A stretch of 64,000 bases of DNA from assembly GCA_043812955.1 (NCBI GenBank), contig JBDRLN010000064.1:326-64325 (forward strand). Direction: 5' to 3'. Position 1 is the first letter of the stretch. Each line of letters opens with the position of its first letter. The notes under the pieces are model-generated. The model made no database searches. It was not told where the DNA came from and saw only the letters and a program-made list of their open reading frames with translations. Below are positions 7,987 through 52,550 of the stretch, in pieces. The position numbers and the translations under genes are program-made. This stretch comes from Candidatus Omnitrophota bacterium. Lineage in GTDB: Bacteria > Omnitrophota > Gorgyraeia > Gygaellales > Profunditerraquicolaceae.

Positions 7987-9468
7987 ATGGCCAGCCTAAA
8001 ACTTAATACCTTAACCGCACACGAATTATTGGAGAAACTTGATATTCAAGAAGTTTCTCCAGATGAGATTGTGGTTTGTCTCCAGGAGCAGATAAAAAAA
8101 GTCGATCCTATCGTCCGGGCTTATGCGCGCCTGGAGAAAGGCCTTAAAGATAAGCAGATTATGGGCAAGGGTGGGATTTTACAAGGGCTTCCAGTCTCCC
8201 TAAAAGATAATATTTGCACAGAAGGTTATAATACTGAATGCTGTTCCCGCATATTAGATGGTTTTAAGCCTCCTTACGATGCCACGGTAATCCGTAAATT
8301 AAAAGAAGCGGGAGCAACCGTCTTAAATATAAAAACCAATATGGATGAGTTTGCCTTTGGTTCTTCTACGGAGAATTCCTGTTTTGGCCCTACTCATAAT
8401 CCCTGGAATTTAGATTGTGTTCCCGGGGGTTCTTCGGGCGGCTCAGCCGCGGCTGTTGCCAGCAATGAAGCTGTATTTGCTATAGGAACGGATACTGGAG
8501 GCTCTATACGCCAACCAGCATCTTTTTGTGGCGTAGTCGGCCTTAAGCCGACCTATGGAAGAGTCTCCCGTAATGGATTGATTGCTTTTGCTTCAAGCCT
8601 TGATCAGATCGGCCCGATTACTAAAGATGTAAGAGACAGCGCGATATTAATGAATGTTATATCCGGATATGATCCTTATGACTCAACATCAGTCAATATA
8701 GGCGTTCCCGATTATACTAAATCATTAGTCAAGGATATCCATGGTTTAAAAATAGGCATACCCAAAGAATATTTTATTGAAGGAATGGATTCGGAGATAA
8801 AAAAGTTGACTGAAGACGCGATAAATAAATTAAAGGCCTTAGGGGCTGTTTGTACGCTGGTATCACTACCGCATACCGAATACGCGACTGCGGTTTATTA
8901 TATATTAGCTACTGCCGAGGCTAGTTCTAATCTATCCAGGTATGATGGCGTACAATACGGGCTGCGCAGCGAAAACCGTAAACCTTACCTGTCCGGCAGG
9001 CAGGCGGAAGCCGATAACCGGTTAATCGGCATGTATAAAACAACTCGGGGGAATGGTTTTGGCGACGAGGCAAAAAGAAGAATAATCCTGGGAACATTCG
9101 CCCTTTCACATGGATACTATGACGCTTATTACCTGCGGGCATTAAAAGTACGTACTTTGATAAAACAGGATTTTAACCGAATATTCAAGGAATACGATTG
9201 TATTGCCGCTCCTACAACGCCTTCTCCTGCGTTTAAAATCGGTGAGAGGGCGCAGGACCCTTTGAGTATGTACCTATCTGATATTTATACGATTTCGGCA
9301 AATTTAGCCGGTCTACCGGCGATATCCGTTCCTTGTGGTTTAACTAAAAATAATCTTCCGGCGGGATTACAGATTTTAGCTAAGCCGTTTGCGGAAGAGA
9401 CAATTTTTAAAGTAGCTTATACGTATGAACAAAATACGCCTTGGCACTTGCAGAGACCTAGTATTTAG
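7987..9468 (+). CDS. gatA: Asp/Glu-tRNA amidotransferase subunit A (amidase signature family)
   Basis: Amidase signature [12 protein letters not shown] and [12 protein letters not shown]. Confidence 0.95.
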
Positions 9469-15028: not shown

Positions 15029-15111
15029 TGAATTTAATATTTCACTTAAACCAATAACATTAATTAACATCCGCCGTAGCGTACCGTGGCGAAGGCGGAT
15101 AAAGGGTAAAT

Positions 15112-15863: not shown

Positions 15864-15881
15864 ACGGATAGATCAAGTTTT

Positions 15882-15930
15882 GGCGGCGTAACTTTAGCCT
15901 GATAGAGTAGTCGGCTCATACCCGATTTGT
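15882..15930 (+). pseudogene. truncated duplicate of the 5' half of the tRNA(CAU) gene (acceptor, D-arm and anticodon arm only), followed by a TCCCGC/GCGGGA hairpin insert
   Basis: 15872-15928 is a near-identical direct repeat of 16022-16078 but lacks a T-arm and 3' acceptor strand. Confidence 0.6.
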
Positions 15931-16031
15931 CACTGCTTTTCCCGCTAAATAGAGCGGGATTTCGCTAGACTGTTTTATTGCGGCGCTCATAAATCCAGTA
16001 TTAACGTAGCAAATTTATAAACTTAAGTTTT

Positions 16032-16105
16032 GGCGGCGTAACTCAGCCTGATAGAGTAGTCGGCTCATACCCGATATGCCAGAGGTTTAAATCCTCTCGC
16101 CGCCA
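16032..16105 (+). tRNA. tRNA-Met-type (anticodon CAU; could be elongator Met, initiator, or the tRNA-Ile2 TilS substrate) with non-canonical D-loop/T-loop
   Basis: Cloverleaf: acceptor GGCGGCG/CGCCGCC, anticodon loop CUCAUAC, T-arm AGAGG-TTTAAAT-CCTCT; D-loop AGCCTGATA implies an A19:U56 covariation in place of G19:C56. Confidence 0.6.
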
Positions 16106-16251
16106 TAAATTTGATAGACGGTGGTTTTCCCGCCCAAAGTTTAACATTTAGGCGGAATCCCGCCTGGCAATAAGAGCATTCTGGCGGGAAAATCCAGTCG
16201 CCGCCACCAGTTCTTTTATAGCAGGCGGCATTTTATTATCGCATTAACTGG

Positions 16252-16344
16252 TTTTCCCGCAAAATAATATAATTATGCGGGATTAACTCGCAGACGGGCT
16301 TCGTCCTATGATTTACGTTGCTAACGCTTCCGTAAATCATCTGC
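16252..16344 (+). ncRNA. candidate structured 5'-leader element: TTTCCCGC-loop-GCGGGATTAACTCGCAGACGG ... CATCTGC (copy A)
   Basis: Shares a ~30-nt core (GCGGGATTAAYTCGCAGACGGSCTT) and an outer GCAGAYG/CRTCTGC helix with 50922-51038, upstream of the ACP gene. Confidence 0.4.
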
Positions 16345-16401
16345 TTGTTATAAATCCAGTCGCCGCCACCAGTTCTTTAATAAGTAAAGGGGATTCAAGA
16401 T

Positions 16402-21780: not shown

Positions 21781-22491
21781 ATGAAAAAACTAGGCATAAA
21801 TATCGACCATGTGGCTACCCTGCGCCAGGCCCGCAGAGGCCGGGAACCTGACCCGGTGCTGGCCGCGTTAATATGCGAGTTGGCCGGGGCAGATAGTATT
21901 GTTGCGCATTTAAGGGAAGATCGCCGTCATATTAATGAAAGAGACCTGCGTATTTTAAAACAAACGCTTAAAACCAAACTTAACCTGGAGATGTCGGTCT
22001 CTCAAGACGTATTAAAAATTGCCTGCGGAATTTTACCCGGACAGGCAACGCTGGTGCCGGAGAAAAGGCAGGAATTAACCACCGAGGGCGGCTTAGACGC
22101 GGTAGCTAATTTTAAGAAAATTAAGACGGCCTGCGCTAAATTAGAAAATAAAGGTATACCGGTAAGCCTTTTTATTAACCCGGATATTAAACAGATCGAT
22201 GCCGCCTGTAAACTCGGAGTAGGAAAAATAGAATTGCACACCGGAAAATATGCTGATTCCAGAAATGACGACGAACAAAAGATATACCTAGAAGAATTAA
22301 AGACTGCGGCTGAGTACGCATTTAGCCAAGGATTACAGGTATTTGCCGGTCATGGCTTAAATTACCACAATGTAAAACAGGTCTCCCGGATTAAATGTAT
22401 CGAGGAATTGAATATAGGTCATTCCGTTATCTGCCAGGCGCTGATTGTAGGATTAGAAAAAGCTGTGCGTCAGATGAAGGCTTTAATATGA
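21781..22491 (+). CDS. pdxJ: pyridoxine 5'-phosphate synthase
   Basis: N-terminus LGINIDHVATLRQARRG. Confidence 0.9.
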   Translation: MKKLGINIDHVATLRQARRGREPDPVLAALICELAGADSIVAHLREDRRHINERDLRILKQTLKTKLNLEMSVSQDVLKIACGILPGQATLVPEKRQELTTEGGLDAVANFKKIKTACAKLENKGIPVSLFINPDIKQIDAACKLGVGKIELHTGKYADSRNDDEQKIYLEELKTAAEYAFSQGLQVFAGHGLNYHNVKQVSRIKCIEELNIGHSVICQALIVGLEKAVRQMKALI

Positions 22492-22844
22492 TAATCGGGA
22501 CCGGAGTGGATATAACTGAGGTAAAACGGCTTAAACAAGCGATAGACAGGTGGGGTAACGGTTTTTTAAACCGGGTTTTTACCGATAAAGAGCTTAAGAA
22601 CGCCTTGGCCCATGTAAATTTCTTCCAGCATCTGGCCGGCAGGTTTGCGGCTAAAGAAGCGGTATTTAAAGCTTTGGGTGAAGCTGACCTGCTCTGGAAA
22701 GACGTCCAGATCTTAAATGATAAACAGGGCAAACCGTATTGCGCCATACTTAACGGCAAAGCCAGGAATAAAGATATTCATATATCAATTTCTCACGTAA
22801 AAAATTATGCAGTTGCCAACGCGATTGTCGCGAAGAAGAGCTGA
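22488..22844 (+). CDS. acpS: holo-[acyl-carrier-protein] synthase
   Basis: MIIGTGVDITEVKRL start overlapping the pdxJ stop; 4'-phosphopantetheinyl transferase fold. Confidence 0.85.
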   Translation: MIIGTGVDITEVKRLKQAIDRWGNGFLNRVFTDKELKNALAHVNFFQHLAGRFAAKEAVFKALGEADLLWKDVQILNDKQGKPYCAILNGKARNKDIHISISHVKNYAVANAIVAKKS

Positions 22845-23652
22845 TTGCCATAAGGGGGATTTTGGCCATATATTTATTATAGCTGGTTCTTTGAAATATT
22901 CCGGCGCCGGCGTATTATGCGCTGAAGCGGCCTTGCGCAGCGGCGCGGGATTGGTAACTTTAGGCGTGCCCCAAAGTTTAGCTATATCCTTAATAAGAAT
23001 AAAGGCAAAAGAGGTAATGCTTCTGCCTCTGCCTGAAAATAATGATGGGAGTTTTTCCCTGTCTGGCTATGAACAGATAAGAGATTTTGCTTCCAAGATC
23101 AATGTATTAGCAATAGGCCCGGGCGCCGGAGAGAACAAGTCCACGCAAGGTTTAATCCGCAAGATTGTATTAAAAATAAATAAACCTATGGTTATTGATG
23201 CGGATGGGTTAAATGCGTTAGTTAGGCATCTAAATCTAGCGCGGGGTGTCAGAATATTAACACCCCATCCTGGAGAGATGGCTAAGCTAACAGGTATTAA
23301 AATAAAAGAGGTCCAAAAAAATAGAAAAGTGATTGCCAGAAAGATCAGTTCTGATTATAATACCACGGTTGTTTTAAAAGGCCGGAATACCATAATTGCG
23401 GACTACAACGGGAGTTTTTATCTTAATAAAACCGGTAATCCGGGTATGGCGACTGCCGGAAGCGGAGATGTATTAACCGGGATGATCGCGGCTTTTTTAG
23501 GCCAGGGTTTAACGGCGTTCCAGGCAGCCAAATACGCGGTTAACCTGCATGGCTTAGCCGGTGATCTAGCAGCTAAAGAAAAAACCCAAATGGGCATGCT
23601 AGCCTCGGATATTATCGCTAAGATACCAGAGGCAATCAAAAAATGCAGTTAA
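22807..23652 (+). CDS. nnr: ADP-dependent NAD(P)H-hydrate dehydratase (Nnr carbohydrate-kinase domain)
   Basis: HKGDFGHIFIIAGS ... GDVLTGMIAAFLGQG motifs. Confidence 0.8.
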   Translation: MQLPTRLSRRRADCHKGDFGHIFIIAGSLKYSGAGVLCAEAALRSGAGLVTLGVPQSLAISLIRIKAKEVMLLPLPENNDGSFSLSGYEQIRDFASKINVLAIGPGAGENKSTQGLIRKIVLKINKPMVIDADGLNALVRHLNLARGVRILTPHPGEMAKLTGIKIKEVQKNRKVIARKISSDYNTTVVLKGRNTIIADYNGSFYLNKTGNPGMATAGSGDVLTGMIAAFLGQGLTAFQAAKYAVNLHGLAGDLAAKEKTQMGMLASDIIAKIPEAIKKCS

Positions 23653-23653
23653 T

Positions 23654-23726
23654 GCCGGCTTAGCTCAGTTGGTAGAGCGTCTGTTTTGTAAACAGATGGT
23701 CGGGGGTTCAATTCCTCTAGCCGGCT
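23654..23726 (+). tRNA. tRNA-Thr (anticodon UGU)
   Basis: Cloverleaf: acceptor GCCGGCT/AGCCGGC, anticodon loop TTTGTAA, T-loop TTCAATT. Confidence 0.85.
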
Positions 23727-23794
23727 TTATTAAGTTCATAGGTGATAGTTCATAGCTTAATAGTAAAATCTATAAACTACGAACAGTGAACTAC

Positions 23795-23888
23795 GAACTA
23801 AAATGGGCAGGTACCCAAGTGGCTAAAGGGGACAGACTGTAAATCTGTTGCACTTCGTGCTTCGGGGGTTCGAAACCCTCCCTGCCCA
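23795..23888 (+). tRNA. tRNA-Tyr (anticodon GUA) with long variable arm
   Basis: Acceptor GGGCAGG/CCTGCCC, anticodon loop CTGTAAA, long variable arm, T-loop TTCGAAA. Confidence 0.85.
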
Positions 23889-23968
23889 TTAAAAAATTTT
23901 ACCAAAAGGTGTAACGGGGCGTGGCCTCCGTTAAAAAGTATGGCGGATTCACCACGCAAGATGCAATA

Positions 23969-24043
23969 CGGGGCGTGGCTCAGTTTGGCTAGAGCGCTTG
24001 AATGGGGTTCAAGAGGTCACAGGTTCAAGTCCTGTCGCCCCGA
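23969..24043 (+). tRNA. tRNA-Pro (anticodon GGG) with C1:G72
   Basis: Acceptor CGGGGCG/CGCCCCG, anticodon loop ATGGGGT, T-arm ACAGG-TTCAAGT-CCTGT. Confidence 0.8.
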
Positions 24044-24260
24044 AATATTGACGAGGCACAGGTTTCCCGCTTTATGCAGAAGTTCTCAAGCGGGATTTCG
24101 CCACGATGAGTTAATAAGGTGGCTCATCAAGTCCTGTCGCCCCGAATAAATGAGGACAGTTTCCCGCCAGATAGATAAATTGCCTGCGGGATCCCGACTG
24201 TTCAAGAGTGGGTGTCGGGTCAAGTCTGTCCGCCCCGAAATATTGACGAGGCACAGGTTG
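24026..24260 (+). repeat. ~2.5 degenerate tandem units (~95-100 bp); each is a copy of the tRNA-Pro 3' end (CAAGTCCTGTCGCCCCGA) plus a TTTCCCGC-loop-GCGGGAT hairpin
   Basis: 39-bp near-identical direct repeats at 24026-24064 and 24218-24260; a partial unit at 24124-24147; TCCCGC/GCGGGA hairpins at ~24063-24100 and ~24168-24205. Confidence 0.75.
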
Positions 24261-24266
24261 AAATTT

Positions 24267-24322
24267 GGGGACGTTTTTATTTTTTATGCCTTTATCAGTA
24301 GAAGAAAAATAGAAACGTCCCC
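24267..24322. repeat. Family-A palindrome copy 3: GGGGACGTTTTTATTTTTT ... AAAAATAGAAACGTCCCC
   Basis: Read directly; immediately upstream of the PilZ gene at 24351. Confidence 0.8.
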
Positions 24323-24350
24323 AAATAAACACGACTAGGAATAACCGGCC

Positions 24351-24704
24351 ATGGAAGAGCAGACCTATACAGATACTGAACGCAGGCAATTTGTAAGGAT
24401 GGATTATACGACTCCCTTGGCATATAAGGTATGCAAACAAGAAACCCTATCTAAAATATTAGAGGGATACACGGTAGATATAAGCCAGGCAGGATTACTT
24501 TGCAACTTAAAAGACTGGGTTAACATCGATGATGTTATGTGGCTCTCCTTTGAAAGAAGCGTATTGCGTATATTCGTAGAGCTGGAGAAAAGAAGCCTTA
24601 TTTATCAAAACGGCGTAATTGGCAAAGTGGTAAGAATACTGAATAACGATAATGGTTCTTATAATGTAGGCGTACAATTTCTGACCCGGGAAGAAAAAAT
24701 ATAG
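24351..24704 (+). CDS. single-domain PilZ (c-di-GMP receptor) protein
   Basis: PilZ motifs RRQFVR (RxxxR) and DISQAGL (DxSxxG); its stop lies 1 nt before the gpsA start. Confidence 0.7.
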   Translation: MEEQTYTDTERRQFVRMDYTTPLAYKVCKQETLSKILEGYTVDISQAGLLCNLKDWVNIDDVMWLSFERSVLRIFVELEKRSLIYQNGVIGKVVRILNNDNGSYNVGVQFLTREEKI

Positions 24705-24705
24705 T

Positions 24706-25704
24706 ATGAAAAAAATCAATATTGCTGTTCTAGGTGATGGGGGGTGGGGAACTACCTTGAGCCTCCTGCTTAATAAAACTGGTTTTGAAGTCACATTATG
24801 GAGCGTTTTTAAAGATTATGCCGCTTATTTAGATAAAAAAAGAGTAAATACCAGATTTCTGCCTAAGATCAAAATACCCCATAATATAACCATTACTGCA
24901 GATTTAAAAGAAGCCCTAACAGGCAAAAATTTAATCATTCTGGCAGTGCCATCGCAATATATGCGCCAGGTCTTAAAAAAGATTAAAAAAATTGAATACC
25001 CGAAGAAGGCAACTTATCTGAGCGTTACTAAGGGCATAGAAATTAAAACGCTGGATACGATGACCGATGTTATCCGGAAAGAATTGGGAGATGTAAAATT
25101 GGCGGTATTATCCGGGCCAACCATCGCCCATGAAGTAGCCTATGGCGTGCCGACTACAGCGGTAGTAGCTGCGCCTGACCATAAACTTTGTAAATATCTG
25201 CAGGATATTTTTATGTATGAAAGTTTCAGGGTTTATACCTCATCGGATACTATAGGGGTAGAATTGGGAGGCAGCGTAAAAAATGTTATTGCTATTGCCT
25301 GTGGCATATCTGACGGCCTGGGATTCGGCACAAATACTAAAGCCGCGCTTTTATCCCGGGGGCTGGCGGAAATCTCCCGATTAGGGATCGCAATGGGAGC
25401 GGATCCTAAAACTTTTAGCGGCGTAAGCGGGCTAGGTGACTTAGTAACAACCTGTATCAGCCTTTACAGCCGTAATAGGTACGTAGGCGAACAGATCGGC
25501 AAGGGGAAAACGCTAAATGAAATAAAGAAAACAATGCGGATGGTAGCCGAAGGCATACCCACATCTAAATCTACTTACGCGTTAAGTAAAAAATATAAAG
25601 TGGATATGCCAATAATAAGGGAAGTTTACCAGGTGCTTTATAAGAATAAATCTCCTAAAGATGCGGTTAGATATCTGATGACCCGCCAGAAGAAAGCAGA
25701 GTAA
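24706..25704 (+). CDS. gpsA: NAD(P)H-dependent glycerol-3-phosphate dehydrogenase
   Basis: N-terminus INIAVLGDGGWGTTL; GpsA fold. Confidence 0.9.
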   Translation: MKKINIAVLGDGGWGTTLSLLLNKTGFEVTLWSVFKDYAAYLDKKRVNTRFLPKIKIPHNITITADLKEALTGKNLIILAVPSQYMRQVLKKIKKIEYPKKATYLSVTKGIEIKTLDTMTDVIRKELGDVKLAVLSGPTIAHEVAYGVPTTAVVAAPDHKLCKYLQDIFMYESFRVYTSSDTIGVELGGSVKNVIAIACGISDGLGFGTNTKAALLSRGLAEISRLGIAMGADPKTFSGVSGLGDLVTTCISLYSRNRYVGEQIGKGKTLNEIKKTMRMVAEGIPTSKSTYALSKKYKVDMPIIREVYQVLYKNKSPKDAVRYLMTRQKKAE

Positions 25705-25780
25705 AAAAGGATAGGACAATAAACTTCTTTTTTAGTTTAGGATAATGAGATTGTGGATTGGTAAAGCTATACGCTAATAT

Positions 25781-25851
25781 GCGGGCATAGCACAGAGGAA
25801 GTGCAGTAGCCTTCCAAGCTACCTACACGGGTTCGAGTCCCGTTGCCCGCT
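25781..25851 (+). tRNA. tRNA-Gly (anticodon UCC)
   Basis: Acceptor GCGGGCA/TGCCCGC, anticodon loop CTTCCAA, T-arm CGGG-TTCGAGT-CCCG. Confidence 0.8.
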
Positions 25852-25972
25852 ATAAGTAGCCTTCTCCCGCTCAGAGAATATAGCAGAGAGGCGGGATCCC
25901 GCTATGATATAATATTAATAGTGGCGGGACAAGCGTAACATATATGTGAGTTCGATTCTCATCGCCCGCTAT
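25852..25972 (+). repeat. degenerate duplicate of the tRNA-Gly 3' end (GTGAGTTCGATTCTCATCGCCCGCTAT) preceded by a TCCCGC-loop-GCGGGA hairpin
   Basis: TTCGAGTCCCGTTGCCCGCTAT (tRNA) vs TTCGATTCTCATCGCCCGCTAT ~100 bp downstream; same arrangement as at the tRNA-Pro locus. Confidence 0.55.
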
Positions 25973-26000
25973 TGATAATATTCAAAAAGGGATTGCGAAT

Positions 26001-26357
26001 ATGAACAAAGAAAGAAGAAAATCCATACGCATCAAAAAACAGATAGACGCCCAATATCAACATATTATTAACGATAAAACAGTCTGGATTACAGTATTGG
26101 TCAATGATATCAGCGAAGCCGGGGCCTGCGTACTAATAGATAGATTCCCCCTGATAGGAGAAGAAATTATATTACGCTTAAGAACACCTTTAAATCCTGG
26201 AGAATGGCTTCAGGTCAATACCAAAGTCATAGACGTAGATAAATATATGACTAACACGTATTTTGCTAGATTGCATTTTATAGATCTGCAGGTCGAATAT
26301 AAAGAACGAATTAGAGAATATATTGATTTTTATCTGAAACGGGAGAAGCGCTTATGA
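26001..26357 (+). CDS. single-domain PilZ protein
   Basis: RRKSIR (RxxxR) and DISEAGA (DxSxxG); overlaps the hom start by 4 nt. Confidence 0.7.
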   Translation: MNKERRKSIRIKKQIDAQYQHIINDKTVWITVLVNDISEAGACVLIDRFPLIGEEIILRLRTPLNPGEWLQVNTKVIDVDKYMTNTYFARLHFIDLQVEYKERIREYIDFYLKREKRL

Positions 26358-27649
26358 AAAAAATAAACGTAGGAATAATTGGTTTCGGAAATGTCGGTTC
26401 GGGGGTTATCAGGATCTTGCAGGAGAGATCCGGATTACTATCCCAAAAGGTAGGTCTGGGCATCCAGGTCAAGAAAATCTGCGATAAGGATATTTTATCT
26501 AAACGCAATGTCAATATTAACAAAGGACTTTTGACTAAAAATCCTCTGGATATTATAAATAACCCTCAGATAGATATAGTGGTGGAATTAATGGGAGGTA
26601 TACATCCGGCCAAGGAGCTTATCTTAGGCGCTTTAAAAAAAGGGAAGAACATCGTCACTGCTAACAAAGCTTTATTGGCCCTTTATGGTAAAGAATTATT
26701 TGCTACTGCCTTTGACTGCGGAAAAAATATTTATTTTGAGGCAGCGGTCGGAGCAGGTATTCCGATCATTAAATCGCTCAAAGAAGGATTAGTGGCTAAC
26801 AAATTCAATAGTATCTACGGCATAGTCAATGGGACCTCTAATTTTATACTCTCTCAGATGTATAATAATAATTGTTCCTTTAATGAAGCCTTAAAAGAAG
26901 CTAAGGCCAGGGGATTTGCTGAAAAAGACCCGACCCTGGATATTGAAGGAATTGATTCAGCCCATAAGTTAATAATACTTACCTACCTTTGCTTTGGAAG
27001 GCTGATCTCGCTTGATGATATTTATATTGAAGGAGTTTCTCGTATATCCCTGGCTGATATTAATTATGCCAAGGAATTAAACCTCAAGGTAAAATTATTA
27101 GCCATTGCTAAAAAAGAGGGCGACAGCCTGGATGTCCGGGTCCACCCGACCCTGATACCTAATGAACACATGCTCTCTTCTGTAGATGAAGTCAATAACG
27201 CTATTTATGTATCTTCGGACCTGGCCGGCAATCTTTTATTCTATGGCCCGGGGGCCGGTCAATCATCAGCGGCCTCGGCCGTAGTCTCGGATATAATTGA
27301 TTTAACCAATGATATAAAAGCCGGTTTATTCCGGTCGACCTTGAATATTATCACTGATAAGTCAATAAAAAAATTGTCCAAAATAGATGAGATACAAAGC
27401 CGCTACTATATCCGGATGCTAGTTTTAGATAAGCCTGGCGTACTGGCTAAGCTATCCGGGGTATTATCTAAATTCGGAATCAGTATCGCTTCGGTAACCC
27501 AGAAAGAGAGAAGAAAAGCCCAGAGCGTGCCCATTGTTATGATTATCCACGAAGCTAAAGAAAAGAATTTAAGAGAGGCTTTACGGATTATTGATCGCCT
27601 GGATATTGTGAAGGAAAAATCCGTGGCTATCCGGATGGAGAGAGTATGA
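26354..27649 (+). CDS. hom: homoserine dehydrogenase (with C-terminal ACT domain)
   Basis: N-terminus [15 protein letters not shown]; Hom catalytic and ACT regions. Confidence 0.9.
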
Positions 27650-28773
27650 TTTCCGATAAAGCATATAAAGGCTTGATAATTAAGTATCGACAATATCTGC
27701 CGGTAACCAAAAAAACGCCGGTGATTACCCTTAATGAGGGAAATACTCCTCTGATTTATGCCAATTACCTGAGCAAGATGATTGGAAAGGGTTTTGAAGT
27801 TTATTTAAAATACGAAGGATTGAATCCCACTGGTTCATTTAAAGACCGGGGCATGACCCTGGCAATATCAAAAGCCTGCGAAGAAGGCTCAAAAGCGGTG
27901 ATCTGCGCTTCAACCGGTAATACCTCAGCATCCGCAGCTGCCTACGCTGCCAGGGCAGGAATCAAATGTATCGTGCTTATACCCAGCGGAGCAATTGCTT
28001 TAGGTAAATTAAGCCAAGCCTTGATCCACGGAGCTACTGTTTTAGCTGTAGACGGTAATTTTGACGATGCGCTAAATCTGGTTAAGGAGATTACAGCTAA
28101 ATACCCCATTACCTTAGTAAATTCACTTAATCCTTATCGTATTGAAGGGCAAAAAACCGCCAGTTTTGAAATCTGCGATTTCTTGACCGATGCACCAAAT
28201 TTTCAGATTATGCCCGTAGGAAATGCCGGAAATATTACTGCCTACTGGAAAGGTTATAAGGAGTATAAAAAAATAGGTAAATCCGTTAAATTACCCAGAA
28301 TGCTGGGTTTCCAGGCTGAAGGTTCGGCCCCCATTGTAAGAGGCCATCCGATTAAAAATCCTGAAACTATTGCCACGGCGATAAGGATAGGCAATCCTGC
28401 CAGCTGGAAACAGGCAGAACAAGCCCGCGACGAATCCAACGGTCTTATTGACCTGGTCTCGGATAAAGAAATAATCCAAGCCTATAAACTATTATCGATA
28501 AAAGAAGGGGTGTTTGTAGAACCAGCATCAGCAGCTTCTATTGCCGGATTATTAAAATTAGCTAAAAAGGGCTATTTTGAGCGGTTGTCGGTTAGCGGTT
28601 GTCGGTTAGCGTCCGCTCACCGTTCACCGCGAACCGCGAACCGAAAGCTTCGCATTGTATGTATACTCACCGGACATGGCCTGAAAGATCCGGACAGGGC
28701 AATTAAAACTATTAAAGCGCCAAAGATCATAAAACCAAATATGAAGGCGATATTGAAAGAAATTGGATACTAG
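27646..28773 (+). CDS. thrC: threonine synthase carrying a ~20-aa in-frame insertion encoded by a GC-rich palindromic element
   Basis: PLP site SFKDRGM; the C-terminus [44 protein letters not shown] is ~20 aa longer than canonical ThrC (KKG...IVCxLTGHG). Confidence 0.9.
28579..28650. repeat. GC-rich repetitive/palindromic insert inside thrC: tandem CGGTTGTCGGTTAG x2, then CACCGTTCACCGCGAACCGCGAACCG
   Basis: Sharp local GC rise; direct repeats with inverted symmetry (GAGCGG...CCGCTC; CGGTT.../...AACCG); reading frame preserved. Confidence 0.7.
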
Positions 28774-29515
28774 CAAAACTAAAAACTCAAAGCGCAAGAC
28801 TCAAAGTTTAAAACTTAAAGCTAAAAACTTTAAGCGCAAAACTCAAAGCTTAAAGGGAAAAAAGGTATTAATTACTGCCGGACCGACTTGGGCAGCCATA
28901 GATGATGTAAGGGTAATCTCTAATACTGCCACAGGAGAAACCGGAAGGCTTTTAGCTGAGAAATTAACAACTAAAGGCGCTAAGGTTGCTCTTCTAATTA
29001 ACGCGGAAAACAGATGCTGGCTAAATAAAAAAATTAAAATTCTGACCTTTAGGTTCTTTGACCAGCTCAAAAAACATATTGTCAAAGAAGTGTCATCCGG
29101 AAGATACGATATTTTTATACATTCAGCCGCAGTTTCTGATTATAGGCCGGCTAAATCAGTTAAAGGAAAAATCAATTCGGGTAAATTTAAGCTCCGCCTG
29201 GATTTAGTCCCTACCCCTAAAATCATTAACCGGATAAAGAAAATTGATAGTTCTTTGTTCTTAGTTGGTTTCAAATACGAGCCTGGTAATGATAAAAAAA
29301 CTTTGATTCAGAAGGCAAAAAAACTAATGTCTAAGTCAAACGCGGATATTATTGTTGCCAATACATCAGGCAAAAAAGGTTACCAAGCGTATATCATAAA
29401 CAGGGATAAGATATTCTGTGGTCCGGTCTATAATAAATCGGTAATGATCAATAGCCTTATACAGGCGATAAACAGGTCATTTGGTTTAAAGAAAACGTTA
29501 CAAAAAAGCAATTAA
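28763..29515 (+). CDS. coaB: phosphopantothenate--cysteine ligase (stand-alone CoaB domain, no CoaC) with Lys-rich repetitive N-terminus
   Basis: [30 protein letters not shown] matches the CoaB core; N-terminal KRKTQSLK repeats are encoded by tandem DNA repeats. Confidence 0.7.
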
Positions 29516-29532
29516 GGAATATAATATAAACC

Positions 29533-30729
29533 ATGAAATACATAGTTTTAGTCGCGGATGGAATGGCGGATTACCCGATTGCAGAATTGGGTAATCGTAC
29601 GCCTTTGGAAGCTAGCCGCACTCCTAATATGGATTATATAGCTAGGCAAGGAAGGCTGGGCCGGGTAAAAACTATACCCGAGAATATGATTCCAGCTTCA
29701 GATGTGGCTAATATTTCTATACTGGGATACGATCCTAAAATATATTATACCGGCAGAGGGCCCCTAGAGGCGGCTAATTTAGGCATTGAAATGGAAGGCG
29801 ATGATGTGGCTTTTCGCTGCAACTTAGTTACTATCGCTAATGATAAAATGATAGATTACAGCTCTGGGCATATAAGTTCTAAAGAGGCCAGCGTTTTGAT
29901 TAAGGCAGTCAACCATAATTTAGGCAGCGATAAATTCAAATTCTATCCCGGGATAAGCTACAGGCATTTATTGCTGGTAAAAAAAAGCGCTGATGAGCAA
30001 CTGGAAAAAATAAATTGCGTCGCCCCCCATGATATCTTTGAACAGAATATTGTTAAATTTCTGCCTAAAGGAAAAAATAGCGATAACTTAATCAAGTTAA
30101 TGCGTGATTCCCAAAAAGTCCTGGAGGCCCATGAGATAAACCAAGTGAGAATTGACCTTAAGGAGAATCCGGCAAATATGATTTGGTTGTGGGGCCAGGG
30201 GAAAAAGCCGGATTTACCTAAATTTACCGATAAGTACGGGCTCAGCGGTAGCGTAATATCTGCGGTTGATCTGATCAAAGGTCTGGGTAAGGTTATCGGA
30301 CTCAACGTAATTAATGTTGCCGGCGCTACCGGATACTATGATACCGACTATAAAGGTAAGGCTAATGCCGCGATAAGGTCCCTGGAGAACAATGATTTTG
30401 TTTTTGTCCATGTGGAGGCACCGGATGAGGCCGGGCATAACGGAGATTTGAGGGAAAAGATAACCGCTATTGAAAGATTTGACCAGTTAGTGGTAGGGAC
30501 AATATTAGAGGCATTTAAACGTAAAAAGAATTTTAAGATCATGGTTTTGCCTGACCACGCGACACCGGTATCTTTAAAAACGCATACCTCTGATGTAATA
30601 TGTTTCGGCATTTTCGGGAAAGGCATCATCGGCAGGGGTTTTTTGAATTACAGCGAAAAGGAGGCGGCGAAATCCGACCTCTATTTTGATAAAGGCCACG
30701 AATTAATGGATTATTTTATTAAATCCTAA
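29533..30729 (+). CDS. apgM: cofactor-independent phosphoglycerate mutase, archaeal-type (ApgM family)
   Basis: N-terminus MKYIVLVADGMADYPI; metalloenzyme domain. Confidence 0.85.
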   Translation: MKYIVLVADGMADYPIAELGNRTPLEASRTPNMDYIARQGRLGRVKTIPENMIPASDVANISILGYDPKIYYTGRGPLEAANLGIEMEGDDVAFRCNLVTIANDKMIDYSSGHISSKEASVLIKAVNHNLGSDKFKFYPGISYRHLLLVKKSADEQLEKINCVAPHDIFEQNIVKFLPKGKNSDNLIKLMRDSQKVLEAHEINQVRIDLKENPANMIWLWGQGKKPDLPKFTDKYGLSGSVISAVDLIKGLGKVIGLNVINVAGATGYYDTDYKGKANAAIRSLENNDFVFVHVEAPDEAGHNGDLREKITAIERFDQLVVGTILEAFKRKKNFKIMVLPDHATPVSLKTHTSDVICFGIFGKGIIGRGFLNYSEKEAAKSDLYFDKGHELMDYFIKS

Positions 30730-30739
30730 AAAAGCAGAG

Positions 30740-31057
30740 GTGATCATGAATGAGAAAAGAAAATTTTACAGGTCGGCGGTTCCGCTGGATAAACTGAAGT
30801 GCAGGATAATCGAGCCCGTAAGCATAGCTAACGATACTGAATTTTCTATTCTTAATATAAGCGTAATGGGCATAGCCTTTGAAAGCGATGAAAAAATAGA
30901 CCACGACGCCATCAGGCTAGCGATCAAATTTCCTTTTACTTCTTATGAAGAAGCGGCCTATGTCTGGGGCAGGGTAGTATATTCGAATAAAATGCTGAAT
31001 AATGATAAACACCTTATCGGTATAGCCTTTATAAGAAAAAAACAGGGTCATAAATAA
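30740..31057 (+). CDS. single-domain PilZ protein
   Basis: RKFYR (RxxxR) and NISVMGI (NxSxxG); its stop overlaps the lysC start codon. Confidence 0.65.
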   Translation: MIMNEKRKFYRSAVPLDKLKCRIIEPVSIANDTEFSILNISVMGIAFESDEKIDHDAIRLAIKFPFTSYEEAAYVWGRVVYSNKMLNNDKHLIGIAFIRKKQGHK

Positions 31058-32271
31058 TGAAAAAACTGATTGTGCAGAAATTTGGCGGTTCTTCGGTGGC
31101 GAATGTCGAACGAATTCAGAATGTAGCTAAAAGGGTCGTTGGCTATAAAAAAGAAGGCCATGATTTAGTGGTGGTAGTATCAGCCTTAGGAGACACTACC
31201 GATGAACTGATCGAACTGGCAAATCAGATCAGCAATGATCCTCCGGAACGGGAGATGGATATGCTTTTATCAACTGGAGAACAGATATCCGTTGCCCTGC
31301 TGGCTATGGCAATCCATAAGCTTGGCTTTGAGGCAATTTCTTTTACCGGAGCGCAAGTCGGGATAATTACCGATAAAAACCACACCCAGGCCAGGATTAT
31401 CAAAATAAATGCCGATAGAATCCGCCGAGCCTTAAAAGAAGGCAAGATCGTTATTGTAGCCGGGTTTCAGGGAATAACCATCGATGAAAATATCACTACC
31501 CTGGGAAGAGGCGGGTCTGATCTTACTGCCGTGGCCTTGGCCAAAGAACTAAACGCTAACGAATGCGAGATATATACCGATGTAGAGGGTATTTATACTA
31601 CGGATCCCCGGATCGAACCCAAGGCAAAAAAGATTAAAGCCATTACTTTTGACGAAATGCTGGAGATGGCTTCTTTGGGCGCCCAGGTAATGCAGCCCCG
31701 TTCCATAGAAGTAGCCAAGAAATTCAACGTCCCGATACACGTACGTTCGTCATTATCATTAAAACGCGGAACTATGATCATCAAGGAGGTAAAAATAATG
31801 GAAGATGCGCTTATCACCGGCGTAACCCTGAATAAAAATGAGACCAAGATTACTGTCTGCGATGTTCCGGATAAGCCCGGAGTGGCAGCCAGAATATTTA
31901 AAGAACTCTCTGATAGCGGCATTAGCGTAGACATGATCGTTCAGAATGTCTCTCATACCCGCAAAACCGATATCTCGTTTACCGTGTCTAAGGCAAATTC
32001 TGCTAAAACAATACGCAAGGCTAAAAAAACATCCCAGGCGATCGGTGCAGGCGTTGTACTGGAAGACGCAGATATTGCCAGGGTCTCGGTAGTCGGCGTA
32101 GGCATGAAATCACACCACGGAGTTGCCGCGACCATGTTCGGGACTTTAGCCGAAAATAAAATCAACATTGAAATGATCTCTACATCCGATATAAGTATCT
32201 CCTGCATCATCCAGAAGAAATTCGCGGAATTAGCAGTTAGAGAAATACATAAAAAGTTTGGCCTGGGATAA
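31057..32271 (+). CDS. lysC: aspartate kinase (with ACT domains)
   Basis: N-terminus QKFGGSSVAN; two C-terminal ACT repeats. Confidence 0.9.
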   Translation: MKKLIVQKFGGSSVANVERIQNVAKRVVGYKKEGHDLVVVVSALGDTTDELIELANQISNDPPEREMDMLLSTGEQISVALLAMAIHKLGFEAISFTGAQVGIITDKNHTQARIIKINADRIRRALKEGKIVIVAGFQGITIDENITTLGRGGSDLTAVALAKELNANECEIYTDVEGIYTTDPRIEPKAKKIKAITFDEMLEMASLGAQVMQPRSIEVAKKFNVPIHVRSSLSLKRGTMIIKEVKIMEDALITGVTLNKNETKITVCDVPDKPGVAARIFKELSDSGISVDMIVQNVSHTRKTDISFTVSKANSAKTIRKAKKTSQAIGAGVVLEDADIARVSVVGVGMKSHHGVAATMFGTLAENKINIEMISTSDISISCIIQKKFAELAVREIHKKFGLG

Positions 32272-33862
32272 TAATTTAAGCCGGAGGCATGAAATGCGCA
32301 AGATTCAAATATATGATACGACCTTAAGAGACGGATCCCAAGGCGAAGGTATTTCTTATTCGGTCAGCGATAAAGTGCGTATCGCTGAAGAATTAGACCT
32401 TTTGGGAGTTGATTATATTGAAGGCGGCTGGCCAGGTTCAAACCCGAAAGACATGGAATTCTTTTTAAAGATGTCCCAGAAGACCCTGAAAAATGCCCAA
32501 TTAACCGCTTTTAGTATGACTCGCAGGCCGAATATCAGAGCATCCCAGGACACGAATATAAAAGATTTGATCAAATCCCGGGTCAAGATCATAACCATTG
32601 TCGGTAAAACTTGGGATCTGCACGTCAGCGACGTTTTAAAAGTAACCTTGGATGAAAACCTGGAAATGATCAAAGATACTGTTTCTTTTTTAGTGTCTGC
32701 CGGCCTTACTGTTTTTTATGATGCTGAACATTTTTTTGACGCCTATAAGGCTAATAAGGAATACGCTTTAAAAACTATTGCCTTCTGCCAAGAGGCAGGG
32801 GCTAAAGCGGTTGTGCTCTGTGATACTAACGGTGGCTCGCTTCCTTCGGAGATTTCGCAGGTGATCAATCAAATCCTACCCTTAGTGAAAGTTCCCTTAG
32901 GTATTCACTGCCATAATGATTGCGGAATGGCTATAGCTAATTCAATCGCGGCAGTTGAATCCGGGGCTGATATGGTCCAGGGAACTATTAACGGTTATGG
33001 TGAACGCTGCGGTAACGCTGATCTGATCCCGGTTATCGCTAATCTCAGAATTAAGTTAGGACTTAAGGCGTTGGGCGAAGACAAATTAAAAGAATTAACC
33101 AAGGTCTCCCATTTTGTCAGTGAAATAAGCAATATGAAACAAAGGGATGACCAGCCTTTTGTGGGAGCCTCGGCATTTGCCCACAAAGGCGGAATGCACA
33201 TCAATGCGGTAATAAAGAACTCTCTGGCCTACGAGCATTGCGAGCCAGGGATCGTCGGTAACCATAGGAGATTCTTGATATCGGAGCTGGGAGGAAAAAC
33301 CGGGATAATGCTCAGGGCTAAAGCCATGGAATTTGACTTAAGCAAAGAGAATCCTCAGACCCAGAGAATACTTAAATTGATCCAGAACCTGGAACATCAA
33401 GGGTATCATTTTGAAGCGGCTGAGGCATCTTTTGAATTATTAATGAAGAGGGCGCTTAAGAAGTATAAAAAATTCTTTGAATTGCAGGGATTCAGGATTG
33501 TGATAGAGAAGATATCCAATAAAAAGATAACCTCGGAAGCGATCATAAAACTAAAGGTAAAGGGCAAAATGGAACATACCGCCGCTGAAGGGGATGGCCC
33601 GGTCAATGCCCTGGATAATGCCGTAAGAAAAGCCTTAAAAAATTTCTATCCCACATTGTCTAAAATGCATCTGGCGGACTTTAAGGTCCGGGTATTGGAT
33701 GAACAAGCCGGAACCGCGGCTAAAGTACGGGTATTAATTCAGTCTCAGGATGAAAAGGATGATTGGAATACCATCGGCGTGCATGAAAATATTATCGAGG
33801 CATCCTGGCAGGCGATGGTCGACAGTATCGAATATAAATTGCTTAAAGATAAAGTATCTTAA
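32258..33862 (+). CDS. cimA: citramalate synthase / 2-isopropylmalate synthase family (CimA-like, 534 aa)
   Basis: IYDTTLRDGSQGEGIS HMGL-like TIM barrel plus C-terminal LeuA dimerisation region. Confidence 0.8.
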   Translation: MAWDNNLSRRHEMRKIQIYDTTLRDGSQGEGISYSVSDKVRIAEELDLLGVDYIEGGWPGSNPKDMEFFLKMSQKTLKNAQLTAFSMTRRPNIRASQDTNIKDLIKSRVKIITIVGKTWDLHVSDVLKVTLDENLEMIKDTVSFLVSAGLTVFYDAEHFFDAYKANKEYALKTIAFCQEAGAKAVVLCDTNGGSLPSEISQVINQILPLVKVPLGIHCHNDCGMAIANSIAAVESGADMVQGTINGYGERCGNADLIPVIANLRIKLGLKALGEDKLKELTKVSHFVSEISNMKQRDDQPFVGASAFAHKGGMHINAVIKNSLAYEHCEPGIVGNHRRFLISELGGKTGIMLRAKAMEFDLSKENPQTQRILKLIQNLEHQGYHFEAAEASFELLMKRALKKYKKFFELQGFRIVIEKISNKKITSEAIIKLKVKGKMEHTAAEGDGPVNALDNAVRKALKNFYPTLSKMHLADFKVRVLDEQAGTAAKVRVLIQSQDEKDDWNTIGVHENIIEASWQAMVDSIEYKLLKDKVS

Positions 33863-50776: not shown

Positions 50777-50921
50777 GTGAGGGCATAAGTTATGGAGCTG
50801 GACATAATAAACAAGGCGTCCGCCACAAAGTCGCCACAGGAATTGGCGACCCGCCAAGCTATGTGGAGGGATCGGCGGATCCGCCAATATTTATGGCGGA
50901 ACATAACTTATATATCCATAC

Positions 50922-51038
50922 TTATCCCGCCCTTTTGGCGTGATAAAAAACAAATTCTATCAAAAAAGCGGGATTAATTCGCAGACGGCCTTGCGGCCTA
51001 CGAATTGCGTCGTAAGAATCACTCCCTAAGTCGTCTGC
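50922..51038 (+). ncRNA. candidate structured 5'-leader element (copy B) upstream of the ACP gene: TCCCGC...GCGGGATTAATTCGCAGACGG-GGCCTTGCGGCC-...-CGTCTGC
   Basis: Homologous core with 16252-16344; outer helix GCAGACGG (50981-50988) / CGTCTGC (51032-51038) ends 5 nt before the RBS AAAGGAG. Confidence 0.4.
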
Positions 51039-51058
51039 TCATTAAAGGAGAGTATAAA

Positions 51059-51869: not shown

Positions 51870-52550
51870 ATGGAAAAAGAATATGCCCTCAATCTATCCT
51901 CCCAAATCGGAATTGACGTACAGCAGGTGGTCAGAGAAGAGATCGAGCTTATTTTCCTTAAGGCCCTTTTTGAATCAAAAATTTCAGATTCATTAGTTTT
52001 TAAGGGCGGCACAGCCCTGCGGCTTATATATAATTCGCCGCGTTTCTCAGAGGACCTCGATTTTTCCCTGACTGCCGCGATAACCTACCGTGATTTTAAA
52101 ACAATAATTTCCAGGATAATCAAATCGGATGATCGTTTTTCCATAAACGACCTGGCTGAAAAATTTTACACCTGCCTGGCTGAAATCCGGGTAAAAGAAG
52201 CCTGGATGGACCAGGCATTCTCGCTTAAAATCGAAGTATCTAAACGCCCGGAAAAAATAAAATCAGCGAATCTCGCAAATATGCTGGCAAAATCTCCCGC
52301 TACCAACTTAATGGTCATGACTAAGGTATATACGCTTAAAAAGATACTTGAAGATAAACAGCGTTTGCTTTCCGAACGAAAAATGCCCCGGGACATCTTT
52401 GATACCTGGTATATCTGCCAAAAAACCGGGGAACCATTTACTTTTAAACAATTCGGTTATCCCAAAGGAAAAATCCGCCAGGAATTAAGAAAATTTCTTC
52501 CCCGCGGTTTTTACTCGGTTATTGATGAACTGGAGAAATTAAATGCTTAA
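51870..52550 (+). CDS. AbiEii/AbiGii-family nucleotidyltransferase (type IV TA toxin-like)
   Basis: FKGGTALRLIYNSPRFSEDLDFS nucleotidyltransferase motif. Confidence 0.6.
   Translation: MEKEYALNLSSQIGIDVQQVVREEIELIFLKALFESKISDSLVFKGGTALRLIYNSPRFSEDLDFSLTAAITYRDFKTIISRIIKSDDRFSINDLAEKFYTCLAEIRVKEAWMDQAFSLKIEVSKRPEKIKSANLANMLAKSPATNLMVMTKVYTLKKILEDKQRLLSERKMPRDIFDTWYICQKTGEPFTFKQFGYPKGKIRQELRKFLPRGFYSVIDELEKLNA

Follow-up and report, generated by a model that had tools for sequence, protein, structure and literature searches.

Split pseudo T-arms with double-hairpin inserts behind the tRNA-Pro(GGG) gene of a Candidatus Omnitrophota bacterium

tRNA genes are classic landing sites of integrase-borne islands, and the tRNA clusters of phages host Seg-type nucleases. 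Where a tyrosine integrase has acted, the identity blocks usually begin at the 5' strand of the T-stem or of the anticodon stem and extend as far as the 3' end, with the loops as the classic sublocations of crossover; in attR, stem, loop and stem stay contiguous. In fungal mitochondria, double-hairpin elements and GC clusters, which look mobile, are non-coding, tens of nucleotides (nt) long and composed of two adjacent hairpins, occupy intergenic DNA and structural-RNA genes. Here we describe an array behind the tRNA-Pro(GGG) gene in a 64,000-nt stretch of contig JBDRLN010000064.1 (the window) of a Candidatus Omnitrophota bacterium, in which displaced copies of the tRNA 3' end belong to pseudo T-arms broken in the loop by hairpin-bearing inserts.

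SegB of phage T6 is a free-standing GIY-YIG nuclease that cuts within tRNA genes at RAWTSGAAC; its nuclease activity and homologous recombination lead to tandem amplification of a tRNA segment, and gene conversion is promoted (PMC13096335). By our own reading, this site would be the reverse complement of the T-loop consensus GTTCSAWTY. A literature search found nothing relevant on insertions into T-loops, on repetitive extragenic palindromic (REP) elements within tRNA genes, or on introns in the tRNAs of Omnitrophota.

Split pseudo T-arms behind tRNA-Pro(GGG)

The tRNA genes of the window were called by ARAGORN and Rfam, which agreed on five (Table 1). Repeats were judged against shuffled sequences, and pattern counts against the values expected by chance. 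The last 18 nt of tRNA-Pro, CAAGTCCTGTCGCCCCGA, occurred exactly twice, at 24026-24043 and 24128-24145; shuffled sequences gave 0.02 matches at three or fewer mismatches. A third copy of the 3' end, CAAGTCTGTCCGCCCCGA at 24221-24238, had one C shifted and was overlooked by a gapless search. A 39-nt segment (24026-24064) was duplicated at 24221-24259 with 88% identity (ungapped). The observation is real and non-random.

The original prediction had the 3' end repeated about 2.5 times behind the gene, which agreed with one exact and one variant 18-nt copy and the 39-nt duplicate. The copies that it placed at 24124 and 24218 exist, with true starts 3-4 nt further on, at 24128 and 24221. The duplication also stood, at a start spacing of 195 nt instead of about 192 bp. 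One TCCCGC/GCGGGA hairpin per unit was found as predicted (24065-24095 and 24162-24191).

The T-arm of the functional tRNA-Pro is ACAGG-TTCAAGT-CCTGT. Each hairpin was preceded by GAGGCACAGGTT or GAGGACAGTT, which are the variable region and T-stem 5' half of tRNA-Pro, and each insert was followed by CAAGTCC.., the remaining T-loop, the T-stem 3' strand and the acceptor 3' strand. Each unit is accordingly a pseudo T-arm whose loop is interrupted halfway by 59-63 nt carrying two hairpins. The T-stem 5' half (ACAGGTT) stood about 63 nt upstream of its 3' half, and the T-loop was broken as GGTT/CAAGT (the slash marks the break). In unit 2, each half was short of one G/C (ACAG, CTGT), and the halves of a unit thus belong together.

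The layout of the locus was tRNA, spacer, (ACAGGTT, insert 1, CAAGTCCTGTCGCCCCGA), spacer, (ACAGTT, insert 2, CAAGTCTGTCCGCCCCGA), spacer, (ACAGGTT) and a long hairpin. The units were 93-102 nt long. The GAGGCACAGGTT at 24053-24064 recurred exactly at 24248-24259. Insert 1 consisted of hairpin 1, TCCCGC-19 nt-GCGGGA (24065-24095), and hairpin 2, TTTCGCCAC..GTGGCTCAT (24096-24127). Inserts 1 and 2 differed throughout, and their loops were unrelated.

Two close relatives allowed comparison (loci of other genomes are cited by L numbers). L081 and L083, with GpsA 86% and 82% identical, were syntenic with the window. In both, tRNA-Pro was followed by a single unit, the orthologue of unit 1, directly upstream of PilZ. 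Unit 1 (89 nt) was 88-90% identical in all three pairs of window, L081 and L083, against 47-64% at the four-fold sites of GpsA. Its stems and junctions were invariant and its loops about 70% identical, and the spacers between tRNA and unit 1 were unalignable. The T-arm of the functional tRNA-Pro of L081 was GACAG/CTGTC, the allele fossilised in unit 2 and in the third 3' copy of the window; it was present in L215 too.

Copy number varied among the relatives. The array of L084, another assembly of the L083 species, had at least two identical 140-nt tandem units, and L083 and L085 had one. Copy number therefore appears to differ between assemblies of one species. The proposal of a mini-satellite of tRNA-derived units was partly borne out in this respect. 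In the window, Tandem Repeats Finder detected no array at the tRNA-Pro locus or elsewhere (the units were too diverged), and the loops of inserts 1 and 2 were unrelated.

The contig of L084 starts within its array, as contigs with unresolved repeats typically do, and this raised the question of an assembly artefact or plain slippage minisatellite. However, inserts 1 and 2 differ throughout and hence are not collapsed or expanded copies. Unit 1 was seen in at least five independent assemblies, and equivalent architecture was present at three tRNA loci of the window and on dozens of metagenome contigs. An artefact is excluded for unit 1 and the overall architecture, units 2 and 3 being known from the window assembly alone, and we consider this explanation extremely improbable.

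Rfam 15, searched over 22000-27000 at a permissive threshold (E up to 1), returned the tRNAs plus two chance matches and no match to the pseudo-units. Scans for promoters and terminators gave nothing above shuffled sequences, and the hairpins were not called terminators. The ORFs (open reading frames) over the array (23940-24149, 24150-24338 and 24111-24440 on the minus strand) exist and had no Pfam match; they had been described as spurious earlier. The inverted repeat at the end of the array had no counterpart in the corresponding spacers of L081 and L083, and was not called a terminator either.

Upstream of the gene, L083 had a fragment, GGGGCGTG, orthologous to the 5' fragment in Table 1. 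The L081 orthologue of the hairpin relic (9400-9442) was TCCGCC..GGCGGA followed by TTCGCCACGCAA. This relic may be akin to the start of insert 1, GCGGGATTTCGCCACGA.

Three other mechanisms were considered and rejected. A serine recombinase with a TT crossover would leave one T fewer than is present at the left junctions. tRNA-primed reverse transcription did not fit repeats that are sense-strand and without CCA. The GTTRRRY core of integron attC-like sites did not fit.

Table 1. Coordinates of the array, of the other tRNA loci and of the hairpin features in the window
Feature	Position	Strand	Evidence
tRNA-Pro(GGG), functional, no encoded CCA	23969-24043	+	ARAGORN; Rfam 62.9 bits
Spacer s1 AATATTGAC and pseudo T-arm 1 5' half GAGGCACAGGTT	24044-24064	+	12/13 nt identical to tRNA positions AGAGGTCACAGGTT, read directly
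Insert 1	24065-24127	+	Pattern match; covariance model 53.6 bits, E 9e-10; orthologues in L081, L083
Displaced tRNA-Pro 3' segment copy 2, CAAGTCCTGTCGCCCCGA, completing pseudo T-arm 1	24128-24145	+	Exact match
Spacer s2 and pseudo T-arm 2 5' half GAGGACAGTT (24152-24161), stem ACAG	24146-24161	+	Read directly; pairs with CTGT 24226-24229
Insert 2: hairpins TCCCGCC..TGCGGGA (24162-24191) and TCCCGAC..GTCGGGT (24192-24220)	24162-24220	+	Pattern match
Displaced tRNA-Pro 3' segment copy 3, CAAGTCTGTCCGCCCCGA	24221-24238	+	18/18 nt identical to 3' end of L081 functional tRNA-Pro
Second s1 and T-arm 5' half, no 3' half after it (half unit)	24239-24259	+	21/21 nt identical to 24044-24064
Inverted repeat, 22-nt arms, 95% complementary, between array and PilZ gene	24263-24326	+	Repeat search
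tRNA-Pro 5' fragment duplicate ACGGGGCGTGGC, 54 nt upstream of gene	23914-23925	+	Exact 12-nt direct repeat of 23968-23979
Degenerate hairpin-module relic (..GGCGGATTCACCACGCAAGATGCAATA) touching tRNA-Pro 5' end	23926-23968	+	Orthologous to L081 9400-9442
Pseudo-tRNA-Met(CAT) (Met0), 5' part complete, 3' acceptor strand missing	15881-15999	+	Sequence; covariance model 61.3 bits
tRNA-Met(CAT)	16031-16106		ARAGORN, Rfam
Two split pseudo T-arm units after functional tRNA-Met	16107-16369	+	Pattern and covariance model
tRNA-Thr	23654-23726		ARAGORN, Rfam
tRNA-Tyr	23804-23889		ARAGORN, Rfam
tRNA-Gly(TCC)	25781-25851		ARAGORN, Rfam
Displaced 3' two-thirds of older tRNA-Gly	25855-25970	+	Pattern; orthology to L081, L083
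Hairpin cluster away from tRNA, between ketoacyl synthase and acyl carrier protein (ACP) genes	50819-51045	+	Covariance model, pattern scan

Other tRNA loci and the hairpin family

Equivalent breaks were found at two other tRNA loci of the window. Upstream of the functional tRNA-Met, the T-loop of Met0 carried an insert (15940-15990). The orthologue of Met0 is L081 521-690, in which the insert has decayed. The same arrangement, a 5'-complete pseudo-tRNA with an insert upstream of the functional gene, was present in L157 and L205. In the two units after the functional gene, the inserts (16128-16189 and 16255-16351) were each followed by the displaced 3' end AAATCCAGTCGCCGCCA (16190-16206 and 16352-16368). 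The first unit was GGTGGTTT, two hairpins and AAATCCAGTCGCCGCCA; the second was ACTGGTTT, a hairpin with a longer module, and AAATCCAGTCGCCGCCA. Met unit 1 was chimeric, with a GGTGG 5' half of the L083 type and a CCAGT 3' half. The tRNA-Met(CAT) gene lies upstream of tilS. It may be a tRNA-Ile2 gene and not one for elongator Met.

Behind the functional tRNA-Gly, the displaced fragment of the older gene consisted of AGTAGCCTTC, two tandem hairpins (25865-25896 and 25897-25929) and CAAGCGTAAC..GTGAGTTCGATTCTCATCGCCCGCT, and here the anticodon loop was broken, as CCTTC/CAAGC. The segment 25930-25970 and its downstream flank were orthologous to the 3' part of the functional tRNA-Gly of L081 and L083. 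The functional tRNA-Gly of the window differed from the L081/L083 type in the acceptor stem, D arm, anticodon stem and T arm. As it differs throughout from the ancestral type kept in its displaced fragment, the functional gene must have been replaced.

All of the breaks were at the loop centre: GGTT/CAAGT (twice) at Pro, GGTTT/AAAT (three times) at Met and CCTTC/CAAGC at Gly. What stays constant is the break in the middle of a tRNA loop; the content of the insert and the extent of tRNA duplicated are variable. The interrupted pieces do not have all the parts that an intron-containing or split tRNA gene would need to give a full tRNA. The Pro units begin in the variable region, Met0 is without a 3' acceptor strand, and ARAGORN and Rfam called none of them.

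The TCCCGC-loop-GCGGGA pattern had six matches in the window against 0.04 expected, all of them within 250 nt downstream of a tRNA gene. A looser hairpin scan gave 16 matches in the 64 kb (0.25 expected), 11 of which (10 distinct sites) were linked to tRNA genes. A covariance model was built from the insert and run over the window and relatives. In the window, its strong matches were only those at 15938-15990 and 24063-24127; weaker ones fell in the other arrays and one at 50925-50975. Further hairpins of this family, the search for which had been proposed earlier, were found at the Met and Gly loci, in other spacers and in metagenomes.

The metagenome scan used the pattern TTTCCCGC-N8-22-GCGGGATTTCGC, which did not include the terminal GCTCA(A/T). 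About 25 distinct true members in T-loop contexts were obtained from independent assemblies, at Met, Pro(GGG), Pro(CGG) and Trp loci of related Omnitrophota; about two-thirds of the matches listed were unrelated hairpins or had arisen by chance in coding DNA rich in GC (for example the L093 and L122 groups). The true members shared the end GCTCA(A/T) and a single orientation relative to the tRNA, 5'-TCCCGC..GCGGGATTTCGC..GCTCA[A/T]-3'. Members of the form GGTTT/AAATCC lay behind tRNA-Met(CAT) on many contigs, several with two tandem units at periods of 81, 118 or 121 nt, and members of the form GGTT/CAAGTCC adjoined tRNA-Trp (L097) and tRNA-Pro(CGG) (L162). The array of L105 contained the 3' ends of several distinct tRNA-Met alleles. 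In viral sequences, a scan gave nothing but chance matches, and the family was not found at more distant Omnitrophota loci.

The conservation of unit 1 above the four-fold sites of GpsA, next to unalignable spacers, would be expected if the units were functional and under selection, as a structured RNA from the tRNA 3' trailer or as a protein-binding DNA module. The fold of unit 1 was a three-way junction with the T stem as its closing helix (z = -3.3 as RNA, -2.2 as DNA), and its variation was concentrated in the loops. Hairpin 2 paired as GCCAC/GTGGC in one and GCCGC/GCGGC in the other of the Pro and Trp subfamilies, and the split T-stem halves matched each other in most units. On the other hand, unit 2, Met0 and the Gly unit folded no better than shuffled sequences, and RNAalifold on the insert family supported hairpin 1 alone, with one covarying pair, and no common fold for hairpin 2 or the whole unit. 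Rfam had no match, the Met0 insert has decayed in L081, and the units are without a tRNA 5' half.

The high identity itself is not peculiar to unit 1: by our reading of the alignments, the window and L081 also agree at about 92% of positions in the Thr-Tyr spacer. Moreover, the ketoacyl synthase was 99% and GpsA (24706-25704) 86% identical to the L081 genome, which suggests mosaic ancestry or recent recombination and may inflate the conservation. A function of the units was judged quite unlikely.

Family hairpins also occurred away from tRNA genes. The 281-nt spacer between the ketoacyl synthase and ACP genes (50777-51057) contained three of them and a second module paralogous to the module of Met unit 2. 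Two hairpins of the cluster were nested within a 10-bp outer stem (z = -4.0 for the DNA fold). The corresponding spacer of the L081 genome (L210) consisted of 71 nt of unrelated hairpins, yet the synthase (window 49559-50776) was 99% identical, which suggested that intergenic hairpin content is quick to turn over. As the L210 spacer was unrelated and not empty, no insertion boundaries could be read from the comparison at 50819-51045. An AbiEii/AbiEi toxin-antitoxin pair (51870-53124) lies inside a biosynthesis cluster of the fatty-acid or polyene type, and the pair is present in L210 too. Another hairpin, TCCGCC..GGCGGA at 15070-15099, was flanked by two genes with an HTH_17 domain, of which one is also fused to a bactofilin domain.

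This dispersal would be expected of double hairpins like those of REP elements or palindrome-associated transposable elements, moved by an unseen single-strand transposase of the Y1/HUH type into exposed loops of DNA that forms hairpins, without target duplication; insertions in tRNA arms would survive only in redundant copies from spontaneous tandem duplication. The 16 hairpins include those of the two non-tRNA spacers, at one of which they sit in the loop of another stem, and the synthase/ACP spacer was wholly remodelled beside a nearly identical gene. The ends of the insert were conserved, there was no clear target duplication, and other small palindromes were scattered in pseudo-tRNA pieces of relatives. 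The right end of the insert, TCA(A/T), resembles the TCAA end of IS608.

However, no Y1 gene (TnpA or the REP-associated tyrosine transposase, RAYT) was found among the window ORFs scanned, most of the genome being outside view. The left flank of the insert was the T-loop half (GGTT or GGTTT), and the hairpin began at the junction. The left ends thus open directly with the hairpin, with no linker or guide sequences of IS200/IS605 and no REP GTAG motif. Nor would such movement explain the presence of the insert in all six pseudo-fragments, the replacement of whole tRNA alleles or the tRNA-bearing cassette of L215 (below) between matching inverted repeats. We regard this explanation as unlikely.

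A second small palindrome family, CCTGCCTGCCGGCAGGCAGG, was present within pseudo-tRNA pieces of L081 (11197-11214), L138 and L149; in L081, the displaced tRNA-Gly fragment has one copy within its T-loop.

Cassettes and empty sites in basal relatives

Three more basal relatives, L215, L216 and L217 (GpsA 73% identical), retained the ancestral order Thr-Tyr-Gly ... GpsA-Pro. The order in the window, L081 and L083 was Thr-Tyr-Pro-PilZ-GpsA-Gly, against Thr-Tyr-Gly ... PilZ-GpsA-Pro in the outgroups (L001, L215 and L216). With this exchange of places between tRNA-Pro(GGG) and tRNA-Gly(TCC), the window, L081 and L083 are without the intervening histidine kinase, response regulator and ThyA genes.

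L216 and L217 were clean, with a Tyr-Gly gap of 5 nt and a plain spacer behind Pro. At the same Tyr-Gly site, L215 and L218 had about 440 nt behind tRNA-Tyr with a GIY-YIG ORF (PF01541, E 1e-18), and thus represented filled alleles. The cassette was followed by a second tRNA-Tyr 3' end (GAATCC..CCA), which began after T-loop nt 56 (..GGTTC/GAATCC..). In L219, from the same sample as L215, a GIY-YIG paralogue (68% identical) occupied the equivalent T-loop position of tRNA-Met, again with a duplicated 3' end behind it. The proteins were small (about 90 aa) and had the catalytic domain only.

L218 also has a group I intron (2140-2367; Rfam 89.7 bits) in the anticodon loop of tRNA-Tyr, a gene that ARAGORN overlooks, and a PD-(D/E)XK_5 endonuclease ORF between NnrD and tRNA-Thr. 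Hairpins made of a tRNA 3' end and flank with their inverted copy, for example CCAGTTTTGC-TTC-GCAAAACTGG, were seen at L215 3975-3995 and 7078-7110 and at L218 2421-2443. Such hairpins at the left junctions of the cassettes might be footprints of fold-back repair.

Two further loci of L215 resembled those of the window. Its old tRNA-Gly was broken as CTTTC/CAAGC, equivalent to the Gly break site of the window, by a 117-nt cassette bounded by TCCCGCC/GGCGGGA and holding a complete new tRNA-Gly. A small TCCCGC..GCGGGG hairpin followed the cassette, and the rejoined old halves were identical to the tRNA-Gly of L001 at 66 of 71 positions. Its tRNA-Pro was followed by GTGACAGTT, an unrelated hairpin insert and CAAGTCTGTCCGCCCCGA, that is, by GACAGTT/CAAGT broken at the equivalent site with another filler. 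The position of the break, read in this way, is independent of which insert fills it.

The enzyme itself was not seen at the loci of the window or its close relatives. The window ORFs were searched against Pfam, except those at 27646-36544, which are syntenic with L081 genes annotated as housekeeping; no integrase, transposase or GIY-YIG gene was found among the ORFs examined, and the earlier statement that no integrase is nearby holds to this extent. A tblastn search with two GIY-YIG proteins gave no match in the window. The annotation of the 21-kb loci in L081 and L083 likewise listed no GIY-YIG or other nuclease or recombinase gene.

By Pfam, the genes neighbouring the array were housekeeping genes (TilS, FtsH, FolP, CdaA, PdxJ, NnrD, PilZ, GpsA, Hom and others). 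A phage origin of the window, suspected from its co-oriented genes and scattered tRNAs, was rejected because these are housekeeping chromosomal genes and the best GpsA matches were Omnitrophota, the nearest genomes being Candidatus Omnitrophota metagenome-assembled genomes (MAGs).

The original prediction had interpreted the repeats as serial att-site duplications. The part about displaced tRNA 3' ends left by successive insertions stood, since two relatives have an orthologue of unit 1, unit 2 carries the functional allele of L081, and the intact elements of relatives are flanked by a duplicated 3' end of the same kind. The repeats are not simple att sites: none of the displaced T-arms is contiguous, nor is the Gly anticodon arm, and a conserved insert interrupts each of them in mid-loop.

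Serial integration of tyrosine-integrase elements at the 3' end of the tRNA, followed by their decay, would have left an accretion of attL and attR copies, with the hairpins as remnants of the arms. The direct repeat of an att duplication is present (18 nt at 24026 and 24128, with the variant at 24221), and the fragments begin at the 5' strand of the T-stem or anticodon stem and extend to the 3' end. In L001, a more distant Omnitrophota MAG, a Phage_integrase gene lies directly behind tRNA-Pro(GGG), and L008 has long 3' duplications around hairpin elements of about 130 nt. Contrary to this explanation, the distal T-arms are always interrupted in the loop (by 59-63 nt in Pro, and likewise in Met and Gly), no Phage_integrase match was found among the window ORFs scanned, and units of 93-102 nt are too small for circular double-stranded intermediates. 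The intact relatives at tRNA loop sites carry GIY-YIG genes or a whole tRNA, none encodes an integrase, and hairpins of the family also occur away from tRNAs. We consider serial integration very unlikely.

The integrase of L001 (11162-12208, minus strand; PF00589, E 7e-22) is of the tyrosine type, and no second att copy was found in the 5 kb of sequence available. In L008 (11678-12560) and L029 (9264-9655), the duplicated tRNA-Pro 3' parts are about 55 nt long and lie on either side of hairpin elements of about 130 nt. Both also contain mini-constructs in which a hairpin takes the place of the whole tRNA body between acceptor strands; in L029, tRNA-Gly 3' ends are repeated as well.

The explanation that we favour, with confidence evenly balanced for and against, is that the array is made up of relics, now without a nuclease, of repeated invasions by cassettes that target tRNA loops, and that unequal recombination has since reshuffled them. 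The features that speak for it are the break position and its independence of the insert, the insert family, the nuclease-bearing and tRNA-cargo cassettes of relatives, the empty sites, the turnover of alleles, the difference in copy number and the precedent of SegB. The agent was likely a homing-type nuclease rather than an integrase. We infer that a GIY-YIG nuclease cutting T-loop DNA drove insertion, the loop-directed breaks being repaired from cassette-bearing donors. The TCCCGC-type inserts of the window would derive from such cassettes, or from their ends.

In the proposed cycle, the DNA of the T-loop (or anticodon loop) would be opened at its centre, and a cassette would be copied in, bringing a replacement tRNA 3' part or a whole gene. 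The gene would thereby be kept functional, and the old 3' part would be moved downstream, joined to the end of the cassette. Repeated cycles with donors of different T-arm alleles, followed by loss of the cassette gene, would leave short units, each with a new 3' end, spacer, T-stem 5' half, double hairpin and old 3' end. Unequal recombination between the 18-39-nt repeats would then alter the copy number. The nuclease may have acted in trans, or may since have been lost from the lineage of the window.

Several observations weigh against relics of nuclease cassettes. No nuclease or recombinase gene was present among the window ORFs examined or in the annotated 21-kb loci of L081 and L083, and a TCCCGC-type insert was never observed joined to a GIY-YIG ORF. 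The link between insert and nuclease would follow from their common position and architecture, plus the TCCCGCC/GGCGGGA tRNA cassette of L215. The GIY-YIG cassettes of L215, L218 and L219 have no T-stem 5' half before their right end, and the units of the window do. The GIY-YIG proteins of about 90 aa have no obvious DNA-binding domain, and their closest non-Omnitrophota homologues (L220-L223) do not adjoin tRNAs. The family hairpins in non-tRNA spacers fit a general REP-like element, and the 88-90% identity of unit 1 (47-64% at four-fold sites) is unexpected for dead relics.

A more far-reaching possibility is that the cassettes are undescribed selfish elements of Omnitrophota chromosomes that home into the T-loop or anticodon loop of essential tRNA genes and remain harmless because they overwrite the gene with their own 3' end or a whole tRNA copy, with a minimal GIY-YIG driver that recognises tRNA-loop DNA and a functional hairpin. 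This view is tentative, and we would sooner doubt than accept it. If it is true, the double hairpin would either abolish the site that the nuclease recognises in the displaced copy or show the nuclease where the cassette ends, and a functional hairpin would account for the conservation of the insert above the neutral rate. tRNA alleles and gene positions, such as those of the Pro/Gly swap, would then turn over through homing.

If loop-targeting cassettes did produce the array, they would represent a third way of exploiting tRNA genes, that of entering the loops of the gene and repairing the damage with a replacement. A readable fossil record of former alleles would lie behind each tRNA gene, tRNA alleles would be exchangeable between lineages, and the crowding of hairpins and spurious ORFs near the tRNA genes of these Omnitrophota MAGs would be accounted for. 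The small GIY-YIG nucleases would be candidate enzymes recognising tRNA-loop DNA. Spotting split pseudo-arms averts mis-annotation, and the arrays may serve as strain-typing markers.

Comparison with known systems

The feature combines known themes, namely tRNA-targeted mobile DNA and Seg-like nucleases, and its interest lies mainly in the family-wide pattern; the proposed mechanism is plausible. Like integrase attL/attR arrays, it shows direct repetition of the tRNA 3' segment, several successive events at a single tRNA and fragments that start from the stem of the loop concerned. It differs from them in the mid-loop insert, the units of about 100 nt and the lack of an integrase among the ORFs examined. 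Integrase att sites are element/host chimeras, whereas here the T-arm halves match each other in most units.

REP elements, bacterial interspersed mosaic elements and IS200/IS605-derived elements are likewise short hairpins with GC stems and variable loops, often paired, dispersed between genes, with conserved terminal bases and no target duplication. In contrast to these, the present family strongly prefers the loop centre of tRNA arms, is without GTAG or guide motifs, and has one member carrying a whole tRNA gene between its arms. The double hairpins of fungal mitochondria are organellar, unrelated in sequence, and unlinked to duplication or replacement of the invaded gene.

The disrupted tRNAs of archaea (with T-loop introns, split or permuted) are similarly interrupted at the T-loop and anticodon loop. 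The pieces described here are bacterial, are incomplete pseudogenes beside an intact gene, and are known from sequence alone.

SegB of T4/T6 is encoded by a small GIY-YIG gene beside tRNA genes, as are the GIY-YIG ORFs at the T-loop breakpoints of L215, L218 and L219. The proteins of these relatives, known so far as sequences only, are about 90 aa long with a catalytic domain alone, and the window holds gene-less relics. SegB belongs to a phage host context; the cassettes described here reside in a bacterial chromosome, inside the tRNA gene, to which they supply a replacement 3' end.

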